DNA of 64,000 bases from Escherichia coli (GTDB taxonomy: Bacteria > Pseudomonadota > Gammaproteobacteria > Enterobacterales > Enterobacteriaceae). Shown in pieces: positions 43,007 to 62,915 of this stretch. Each line of letters starts with the position of its first letter. The first letter of the stretch is position 1. Position numbers and translations under genes: made by a program. Below the pieces are notes generated by a model. The model made no database searches. It was not told where the DNA came from and saw nothing but the letters and a program-made list of their open reading frames with translations. Where the stretch lies: assembly GCF_003334785.1 (NCBI RefSeq), contig NZ_QOWV01000001.1, one strand, 5' to 3'.

Positions 43007-43014
43007 ATGCCCTC

Positions 43015-43135
43015 GTCGCATCAGGTAACCTTGCCGGTACCTGATGCGCTCCGAATTCTGTGGGTCGGATAAGGCGTCCACGCCGCATCCGACAGTCGAG
43101 CATCAATGCCTGATGCGCTTCTTATCAGGCCTACC
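43015..43135. repeat. BIME / REP cluster downstream of ycfP
   Basis: Three REP-type palindromes: CGCATCAGGTAACCTTGCCGGTACCTGATGCG, GTCGGATAAGGCGTCCACGCCGCATCCGAC and GCCTGATGCGCTTCTTATCAGGCCTAC. Confidence 0.7.
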
Positions 43136-43254
43136 GAACGCCCTGCATACACCCCTCACTCTATATCACTCTCACAAATTCGCTCAAATAATAAACAATA
43201 AACTCTGTTTTTTGATCTCACCCGGTAAAGTCGCCTATCTTTTCAGCAACAAAA

Positions 43255-43268
43255 CTTGATTAACATCA
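43255..43268 (+). promoter_or_regulatory. FNR-consensus site upstream of ndh
   Basis: TTGAT-TAAC-ATCAA, a perfect match to the FNR half-site consensus TTGAT-N4-ATCAA, about 140 bp upstream of the ndh start. Anaerobic repression of ndh by FNR is established. Confidence 0.6.
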
Positions 43269-43405
43269 ATTTTGGTATGACCAATGCACCATTCATGTTA
43301 TTCTCAATAGCGAAGAACATTTTCATTGCTGTAACCTGTTGTTAATTAAGAGCTATGTTAATAACCATTAATTAACAATTGGTTAATAAATTTAAGGGGG
43401 TCACG

Positions 43406-44710
43406 TTGACTACGCCATTGAAAAAGATTGTGATTGTCGGCGGCGGTGCTGGTGGGCTGGAAATGGCAACACAGCTGGGGCATAAGCTGGGACGCAAGAA
43501 AAAAGCCAAAATTACGCTGGTCGATCGTAACCACAGCCACCTGTGGAAACCGCTGCTGCACGAAGTGGCGACTGGCTCGCTTGATGAAGGCGTCGATGCG
43601 TTGAGCTATCTGGCCCATGCGCGCAATCATGGTTTCCAGTTCCAGCTGGGTTCCGTCATTGATATTGATCGTGAAGCGAAAACAATCACTATTGCAGAAC
43701 TGCGCGACGAGAAAGGTGAACTGCTGGTTCCGGAACGTAAAATCGCCTATGACACCCTGGTAATGGCGCTGGGTAGCACCTCTAACGATTTCAATACGCC
43801 AGGTGTCAAAGAGAACTGCATTTTCCTCGATAACCCGCACCAGGCGCGTCGCTTCCACCAGGAGATGCTGAATTTGTTCCTGAAATACTCCGCCAACCTG
43901 GGCGCGAATGGCAAAGTGAACATTGCGATTGTCGGCGGCGGCGCGACGGGTGTAGAACTCTCCGCTGAATTGCACAACGCGGTCAAGCAACTGCACAGCT
44001 ACGGTTACAAAGGCCTGACCAACGAAGCCCTGAACGTAACGCTGGTAGAAGCGGGAGAACGTATTTTGCCTGCGTTACCGCCACGTATCTCTGCTGCGGC
44101 CCACAACGAGCTAACGAAACTTGGCGTTCGCGTGCTGACGCAAACCATGGTCACCAGTGCTGATGAAGGCGGCCTGCACACTAAAGATGGCGAATATATT
44201 GAGGCTGATCTGATGGTATGGGCAGCCGGGATCAAAGCGCCAGACTTCCTGAAAGATATCGGTGGTCTTGAAACTAACCGTATCAACCAGCTGGTGGTGG
44301 AACCGACGCTGCAAACCACCCGCGATCCAGACATTTACGCTATTGGCGACTGCGCGTCATGCCCGCGTCCGGAAGGGGGCTTTGTTCCGCCGCGTGCTCA
44401 GGCTGCACACCAGATGGCGACTTGCGCAATGAACAACATTCTGGCGCAGATGAACGGTAAGCCGCTGAAAAATTATCAGTATAAAGATCATGGTTCGCTG
44501 GTATCGCTGTCGAACTTCTCCACCGTCGGTAGCCTGATGGGTAACCTGACGCGCGGCTCAATGATGATTGAAGGACGAATTGCGCGCTTTGTATATATCT
44601 CGCTATACCGAATGCATCAGATTGCGCTGCATGGTTACTTTAAAACCGGATTAATGATGCTGGTGGGGAGTATTAACCGCGTTATCCGTCCGCGTTTGAA
44701 GTTGCATTAA
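43406..44710 (+). CDS. ndh: Type II NADH:quinone oxidoreductase NDH-2 (434 aa, TTG start)
   Basis: TTG at 43406, preceded by AAGGGGG at the right spacing, gives (M)[56 protein letters not shown]..., 434 aa as recalled for Ndh; the six-frame ORF from ATG 43379 is 9 codons longer. Confidence 0.88.
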
Positions 44711-46651: not shown

Positions 46652-46690
46652 GCATTAACCCTCATTAATGCCTGCTACTGCTGATTTTTT

Positions 46691-46724
46691 CCCCGCGACA
46701 TGCCGTGTCGCGGGGATTTTTTTA
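46691..46724 (+). terminator. Rho-independent terminator of bhsA
   Basis: Hairpin CCCCGCGACA-tgcc-GTGTCGCGGGG followed by ATTTTTTTTA. Confidence 0.8.
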
Positions 46725-61795: not shown

Positions 61796-62915
61796 CAGCC
61801 AGTACGACCTCCCAGCTTTCTACCCAATTAATGGCCATTTTTTGGTCGAGAGAGTGGTCAAAGTCAGGATCGTCTTCATTGAAGAATTCGCTGACCATCA
61901 CCATCTTGCCATTTTCCAGTTCAACAACCGACTCCAGCGTCATGCCTTTGTAGTTACGCTCGCGAACGTAACCAATCAGCCCTTCAGCGTGGTTGTCGTC
62001 GTTAATCTCTTCAACACGTAAGTCTTCCGGGCGCAGCAGAACATGCAGTTTTTGCCCCGGTTCAACGGCGAAGTTAACGTAGATATTACATTCGCGGCCT
62101 TCAACGTTGGCGCGTACGCGCTGCTCGTCTAGACGTTCGATGACAGTGGCGTTAAACATATTGATTTCGCCAATGAAGCCGGCAACAAACAGGTTTTTCG
62201 GCTCTTCGTAGATTTCACGCGGCGTGCCGTCTTGCTCAATGCGACCATCGCGCATCACCACAATCCTGTCTGACATGGTGAGTGCTTCTTCCTGGTCGTG
62301 AGTCACAAAGACGAATGTAATGCCAAGCTTACGCTGTAACGCTTTCAGCTCGTTCTGCATTTGCTTACGCAGTTTGTAATCCAGCGCTGAGAGCGACTCA
62401 TCCAGCAACAACAGACGAGGCTTGTTAACCACCGCGCGAGCAATGGCGACGCGTTGCTGTTGACCACCAGAGAGCTGATGCGGTTTGCGTTGAGCGAAGG
62501 TTTCCAACTGCACCATCCGCAGGGCTTCCATCACGCGGGGCGTAATTTCAGCAGCGGGGGTTTTTTGCATGCGCAACCCAAAGGCCACATTTTCGAACAC
62601 GGTCATGTGGGGGAAAAGTGCGTAGCTTTGGAAAACAGTGTTCACATAGCGGTTTTCCGCCGGAACGTGGGTGATGTCCTCGTTATCCAGCATGATGCGT
62701 CCGGAATCAACAGTTTCCAGACCTGCAATCAGGCGAAGAACGGTTGTTTTACCGCAGCCAGAAGGGCCAAGCAGCGTGAGGAACTCGCCATTGTTGATAG
62801 TCAGATCCAGCTGGGGAATGACCTCTTTACCATCAAAGCATTTGCGAATTCCCGCCAATTGCACCAGCGGTGAAAGCGAACTCGGTTGTTTATTCAATTT
62901 TTTACTCTGTCCCAT
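61779..62915 (-). CDS. potA: Spermidine/putrescine ABC transporter ATPase PotA (378 aa)
   Basis: [62 protein letters not shown]... (Walker A, LSGGQQQR signature); 17-nt overlap with potB; matches recalled PotA. Confidence 0.95.

Follow-up and report, generated by a model that had tools for sequence, protein, structure and literature searches.

An inverted repeat in the transcribed leader of Escherichia coli ndh, probable core of a downstream ArcA operator

The ndh promoter, leader and inverted repeat

The window analysed here is a 64-kb stretch of Escherichia coli DNA, in which a coordinate is converted to that of U00096.3 / NC_000913.3 by adding 1,122,679. Its ycfP-ndh intergenic region, which was found in 5,426 of 5,426 complete E. 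coli genomes, contains a perfect 11-bp inverted repeat comprising TTGTTAATTAA at 43339-43349 and the exact reverse complement, TTAATTAACAA, at 43368-43378. The arms are separated by 18 nt, and the right arm ends 27 nt before the TTG start codon of ndh at 43406, exactly as set out in the preliminary description. With mismatches allowed, the repeat extends to 25-nt arms (43332-43356 and 43361-43385) that are 80% complementary. The features of the promoter and leader are as follows.

43256-43269, no strand assigned: FNR site I, TTGATtaacATCAA, a perfect site centred at 43262.5 (-50.5), at its published position and conserved in all species sampled
43270-43286, no strand assigned: the published PdhR box for ndh, ttTTGGTatgACCAATg, lying over the -35
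43272-43277, plus strand: -35 hexamer TTGGTA (ROSE paper)
43299-43304, plus strand: -10 hexamer TATTCT (ROSE paper), invariant in the alignment
43313, plus strand: ndh transcription start (+1), from the ROSE paper (Pndh at 1,165,992 of U00096.3, TTGGTA-21-TATTCT), a position that fits the FNR site at -50.5
43339-43349, plus strand: left arm of the repeat, TTGTTAATTAA, first repeat element of a plus-strand ArcA-type box, with one variable position in 81 sequences
43368-43378, minus strand: right arm of the repeat (TTGTTAATTAA on this strand), the strongest repeat element of the published ArcA site, 12.5 bits (Park et al. 2013 Table S4)
43394-43400, plus strand: Shine-Dalgarno sequence AAGGGGG, outside the predicted leader hairpin
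43406-44710, plus strand: ndh coding sequence, TTG start, 434 aa, stop codon at 44708-44710; the RefSeq annotation starts at the same base

The assignment of a TTG start to the 434-aa ndh, which had originally been made by agreement in length, holds. The open reading frame at 43406-44710 concurs with RefSeq, the position of the start is fixed across genera, and the alignment reveals indels that are not multiples of three sitting just upstream of it. The codon itself is TTG in most genera, ATG in Kluyvera, and GTG in Raoultella, Yokenella and Pseudocitrobacter, among others. The UUG/TTG start of ndh is the finding announced in the title of Young et al. 1981. In the K-12-like E. coli L-form strain LTE (NZ_CP169632.1) ndh is annotated as a frameshifted pseudogene, and the intergenic region is identical to that of the window.

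The transcription start was taken from the ROSE paper, a genome-wide in vitro run-off study in which the spacer of Pndh is 21 bp. Counted from this start the repeat spans +27 to +66 within the 93-nt ndh leader, and it is therefore transcribed and clear of the core promoter. The suggestion that the repeat might be an operator overlapping the core promoter is thus incorrect, as the -35, the -10 and +1 all precede the first base of the left arm, while the question of whether the repeat is transcribed is answered in the affirmative. A simple sigma-70 scan returned no promoter and is uninformative here, because the spacer of the real promoter is, at 21 bp, atypical and renders the scan blind to it.

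Comparison with other genera also bears on the sites upstream of +1. The FNR site at -50.5 is kept everywhere sampled, Erwiniaceae included. The upstream FNR half-site TTGATctcaCCCGG (43212-43225, centre -94.5) was observed in Escherichia only, among the genera compared; at the equivalent position, after ycfP, the other genera have GGGCTGG and then a T run, a terminator-like arrangement. Enterobacteriaceae share an invariant PdhR box, which [Pantoea] beijingensis also has, as TTGGTATAACCAA; Erwinia persicina, Pantoea and Mixta have lost it.

In dinucleotide-preserving shuffles of the intergenic region, in which perfect arms of at least 11 bp with a spacer of up to 40 nt were counted, such a repeat appeared in 0.4% of cases for the 399-nt region and in 0.7% for its AT-rich 245-nt part, giving a local P of about 0.005. 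These frequencies, along with the conservation of the arms across Enterobacteriaceae documented below, bear out the earlier opinion that the repeat is too exact to be comfortable as chance in some 400 bp. By the same definition, the whole 64-kb window contains six perfect inverted repeats against approximately 0.4 expected from block shuffles. REP-type palindromes occupy 43017-43135, between ycfP and ndh, and include a perfect 11-bp inverted repeat, CGCATCAGGTA/TACCTGATGCG, at 43017-43048. An Rfam match to the REP-derived naRNA4 on both strands of 43063-43131 scored 56.5 bits, just below the gathering score of 59.5. Four other perfect repeats, with arms of 11-12 bp and short spacers, are located at 1377-1423, 6704-6726, 25000-25025 and 46690-46716; they are rich in G+C and may represent terminators or operators.

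ArcA boxes in the two arms

ArcA binding at ndh was previously detected by both ChIP-chip and ChIP-seq, with peak heights of 11.9 and 11, respectively, at a resolution insufficient to separate the two arms (Park et al. 2013, PLoS Genet). The ndh site is among the 128 boxes behind the ArcA logo published in that study, which annotated repeat elements at ndh on the minus strand only. Mapping of the published sites onto the window showed that the right arm is the core of the 18.7-bit ArcA box, and that both arms match the near-consensus ArcA repeat element TTGTTAATTA. The ArcA features of the leader are listed below.

43339-43356, plus strand: convergent ArcA-type box TTGTTAATTAAGAGCTAT, matrix score 11.3 bits, centre +35.5 (the predicted '+36' of EcoCyc)
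43358-43389, minus strand: published three-repeat ArcA site TTATTAACCAATTGTTAATTAATGGTTATTAA, +46/+77 (Park et al. 2013 Tables S4 and S7), an exact match to the window
43361-43378, minus strand: published 18-bp ArcA box ttgttaattaatggttat, 18.7 bits, centre +57.5 (Park et al. 2013 Table S3)

Functional data are available from two organisms. Phosphorylated ArcA represses ndh transcription in vitro (Rolfe et al.), and in a Salmonella Typhimurium arcA mutant ndh is up 2.2- to 7.1-fold. ArcA boxes have been predicted on opposite strands at Salmonella ndh, corresponding to the two arms, with GTTAATTAAAGGCTA as the counterpart of the left arm. In vivo reports on arcA and ndh in E. coli conflict, with activation and repression both claimed. 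ArcA dimers bind direct repeats, and the architectures described for ArcA do not include convergent boxes. The centres of the ChIP peaks, at 43325 and 43337, were considered as an argument for occupancy of the left arm and discarded, as offsets of 25-45 bp occur frequently elsewhere in that table.

To score the leader independently of its own published site, an 18-bp ArcA matrix was built from 114 published boxes with the ndh site excluded. The right-arm box (43361-43378, minus strand), in which two TGTTA-type direct repeats lie 11 bp apart centre to centre, scored 18.5 bits and ranked top of the 127,966 positions in the window. The left box is, at 11.3 bits, modest and inside the range of ChIP-derived sites, the minimum of which is 9.4. 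Further matches were returned at 43372-43389 (12.7 bits) and 43320-43337 (10.0 bits), both on the minus strand, such that 4 of the 17 sites in the window scoring at least 10 bits cluster within approximately 70 bp at the ndh leader. The centres of the matrix matches, at +35.5, +51.5, +57.5, +65.5 and +68.5, coincide with the ArcA positions predicted for ndh by EcoCyc (+36, +52, +57, +66 and +68, as quoted by Rolfe et al.). The second-best match to the matrix in the window is ATGTAATATCTACGTTAA at 62074-62091 on the minus strand (15.3 bits).

The ndh loci of 85 species, comprising 80 Enterobacteriaceae species, Shimwellia and four Erwiniaceae, were compared; the homologue list was saturated at an identity of at least 84%, leaving Yersiniaceae, Morganellaceae and Vibrionaceae outside the comparison. 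The preliminary description had asked whether the arms are conserved in other Enterobacteriaceae, and they are clearly so, being near-invariant in 81 sequences from about 80 species of the family, in which 13 of the 22 stem positions do not vary at all. Variation is seen in the first 20 or so nucleotides of the leader and in the middle of the spacer, while the arms and their flanks (GTAAC, ATAAC and TTGGTTAAT) are nearly invariant. The minus-strand ArcA box has a median score of 19.1 bits in the 85 species, never falling below 15.3 bits among the 80 Enterobacteriaceae species and scoring 11.9-19.0 bits in Shimwellia and the four Erwiniaceae. For the plus-strand box the median is 12.6 bits, and 50 of the 74 distinct sequences have a weak second repeat element (GCTAT) in it. 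In about 30 species, exemplified by TTGTTAATTAAGGGTTAT of Enterobacter, this box scores 17-21 bits, and these high-scoring boxes carry the spacer GGGTTAT instead of GAGCTAT. Sequence comparison thus reveals a layout shared across the family, in which two convergent ArcA boxes present four repeat elements that face a 4-bp centre.

The leader hairpin and its cleavage by RNase III

Folding of the leader, as had been proposed, yields a stable hairpin that dominates the predicted structure of the whole leader.

43332-43385, plus strand: predicted hairpin with a 5-bp outer stem, a 12-bp arm stem and a short apical stem of 4 pairs
43364, plus strand: RNase III-dependent cleavage position, NC_000913.3 coordinate 1,166,043 (Gordon et al. 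2017, Table 1 and supplement)

The hairpin has a minimum free energy of -17.2 kcal/mol (z = -4.8), a stability that was matched by none of the shuffles. It is kept at -15 to -25 kcal/mol across Enterobacteriaceae and is weaker in Erwiniaceae, at -8 to -12 kcal/mol; in this survey the Siccibacter row was disregarded as it was mis-anchored. The stem of about 21 bp with small interruptions (5, 12 and 4 pairs) has the length of an RNase III substrate (~20-22 bp), and the reported cleavage position falls in the apical part of the predicted hairpin. The ndh transcript is also cut by RNase III in vitro, where it was scored 'Y' with several sites, and cleavage had no reported effect on the stability or half-life of the mRNA (Gordon et al. 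2017). The in vitro substrate used in that study (43010-43768) begins 303 nt before the natural +1 and takes in the REP palindromes, so that some of the 'multiple' cuts may lie in these palindromes and not in the repeat.

The proposal that the repeat forms an RNA hairpin that modulates translation from the weak start codon is upheld in part. The leader is transcribed, folds stably and contains an RNase III site within the fold, but the predicted hairpin stops at 43385, short of both the Shine-Dalgarno sequence and the TTG at 43406, and so does not sequester the ribosome-binding site. An intrinsic terminator or attenuator was also considered and rejected, as the stem is rich in A-U pairs, the sequence after it, AAUAAAUUUAAGGGGG, contains no U tract, and a terminator scan of 43300-43450 returned no terminator-like site. 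An Rfam search at a permissive E-value assigned the leader to no family, the naRNA4 match being the sole return.

Base-pair changes were tallied to distinguish selection on the DNA from selection on the RNA. The count covered 81 sequences, 74 of them distinct, and 13 of the 22 stem pairs show no change at all. The pair 43346:43371 is U-A in 50 of the distinct sequences, U-G in 7, C-G in 5 and broken in 12. Double changes are confined to this one pair, and the number of pairs changed on both sides is no better than in shuffles (396 of 500). As the arms are almost invariant, covariation is uninformative with respect to RNA structure. Swaps from A-U to G-C are absent in 13 of the 22 pairs, which, together with the conservation of the unpaired flanks, points to sequence-specific recognition. 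The left arm, the ArcA box of which is only moderate in most species, could just as readily owe its invariance to pairing of the RNA with the right arm, and a secondary role of the RNA is possible. In Shimwellia blattae the inner stem, some 40-60 nt upstream of ndh, reads GGGUUGU...ACAAUCU as compared with GGGUUAU...AUAACUU; this compensatory replacement of A-U by G-C also changes the two inner ArcA repeat elements in a symmetrical manner.

Interpretation and relation to known systems

The repeat is real, functional and already known, being contained both in a catalogued ArcA-binding region and in a published RNase III substrate. In our judgement it is probably the core of a downstream ArcA operator that extends from +27 to +77 in the initially transcribed region of ndh. 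The operator would consist of a convergent pair of ArcA boxes facing the 4-bp centre, each made up of two direct repeats of the (T/G)GTTA type spaced 11 bp apart. In both boxes the outer repeat element is the near-consensus TTGTTAATTA, which accounts for the perfect reverse complementarity of the arms. When conditions are micro-aerobic or anaerobic, phosphorylated ArcA would bind this operator, presumably occupying the left arm as well as the right, and lower ndh transcription. Repression would presumably be exerted as a roadblock, through hindered promoter escape or early elongation, with ArcA acting alongside FNR (at -50.5 and -94.5) and PdhR (over the -35). The earlier idea of a protein operator is therefore sustained with respect to ArcA, for which there is a ChIP peak, an 18.7-bit box and repression in vitro, but not with respect to overlap with the core promoter. 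As the operator lies downstream of +1, the palindrome is copied into the mRNA, where it forms the ~21-bp hairpin cleaved by RNase III; on present evidence this processing is either a by-product or a minor level of control.

Three other explanations deserve consideration. Chance is the easiest to dispose of. AT-rich low-complexity promoter DNA readily forms TTAATTAA-like palindromes, and about 0.5% of shuffles reach 11 bp, but a fortuitous origin is rejected because the arms are conserved: the repeat is near-invariant in some 85 species in which adjoining leader positions vary, and published protein binding and RNA cleavage both map onto it, leaving this explanation with next to no credibility. 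We also consider it very unlikely that the palindrome is chiefly a site for another protein, such as a downstream Fis, IHF or NsrR, with ArcA one of several occupants. The Green/Guest laboratory has reportedly described a downstream Fis site or an IHF site at ndh, and a third Fis site is reportedly centred near +51, which corresponds to about 43363. Two upstream Fis sites at ndh are characterised, and IPOD-HR shows an ndh promoter with overlapping sites for six factors, the occupancy being attributed, depending on condition, to IHF, PdhR, NsrR or ArcA. However, the arms agree exactly with the repeat consensus of ArcA, and no protein other than ArcA combines a ChIP peak and a mapped motif with repression in vitro at the coordinates of the repeat.

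The remaining alternative holds that a function at the RNA level, either a regulatory RNase III site or the tuning of weak UUG translation, is what is selected, and that the resemblance to ArcA sites is secondary. Several observations favour such a role. The hairpin is stable, unusually so for its composition, its counterparts in other Enterobacteriaceae are equally or more stable, and the transcript is cut by RNase III both in vivo, at 43364, and in vitro. In addition, sister taxa suggest a U-A to U-G to C-G route for the pair 43346:43371, the inner stem of Shimwellia has changed in a compensatory manner, and pairing accounts for the invariance of the left arm. Against this, the same pair is broken in 12 of the 74 distinct sequences and is the only one with a double change, while the invariance exceeds what pairing needs, reaching into the unpaired flanks TTGGTTAAT and ATAAC. 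Furthermore, the Shine-Dalgarno sequence and the start codon are outside the hairpin, RNase III cleavage leaves the stability of the ndh mRNA unchanged, the leader belongs to no Rfam family, and the ArcA box is retained in Erwiniaceae even though the hairpin has decayed there. On balance, selection primarily on the RNA appears unlikely. Similarly doubtful, at about the same level, is a dual use of the element, in which convergent ArcA boxes would bind a symmetric oligomer of phosphorylated ArcA and the RNase III-processed hairpin would reset the 5' end of the leader and thereby adjust UUG translation. If such a dual use were true, transcriptional and post-transcriptional control of NDH-2 would be coupled.

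The ndh promoter is among the most heavily studied respiratory promoters of E. coli, and the stretch described here already features in EcoCyc and in the RNase III literature. The convergent symmetry of the two boxes seems to be the only mildly new point, and has apparently passed without comment before. An operator placed in the DNA beyond +1 inevitably gives the mRNA a structure, and whether that structure has been co-opted is a modest question.

As a probable downstream ArcA operator, the element can be compared with three types of known system. It resembles the multi-repeat operators of phosphorylated ArcA (Park et al. 2013; the ArcA box of Lynch & Lin and of Liu & De Wulf) in possessing an 18-bp box with two TGTTA-type repeats 11 bp apart plus an extra element, and in being a long, AT-rich site on a respiratory gene with a ChIP-seq peak. 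It differs from them in that a second box lies in the opposite orientation, creating a dyad of four elements that is undescribed as a class, and in that the site is wholly downstream of +1. Other ArcA sites at positive positions include those of tpx (+2/+34) and caiT (+19/+61) (Park et al. Table S7). In common with the RNase III-processed leaders of pnp, rnc and proP, and others in the set of Gordon et al. 2017, the 5' UTR of ndh contains a stem of about two helical turns and displays RNase III-dependent loss of read coverage in vivo together with cleavage of the transcript in vitro. It differs from those leaders in that no effect on the half-life of the ndh mRNA was found, the stem is almost all A-U, and its sequence is constrained as a DNA site. 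Finally, the element is similar to roadblock-type downstream operators (lac O2-type and purR-type) in that a repressor site past the transcription start is tied to repression, the step that is blocked at ndh being a presumed one.
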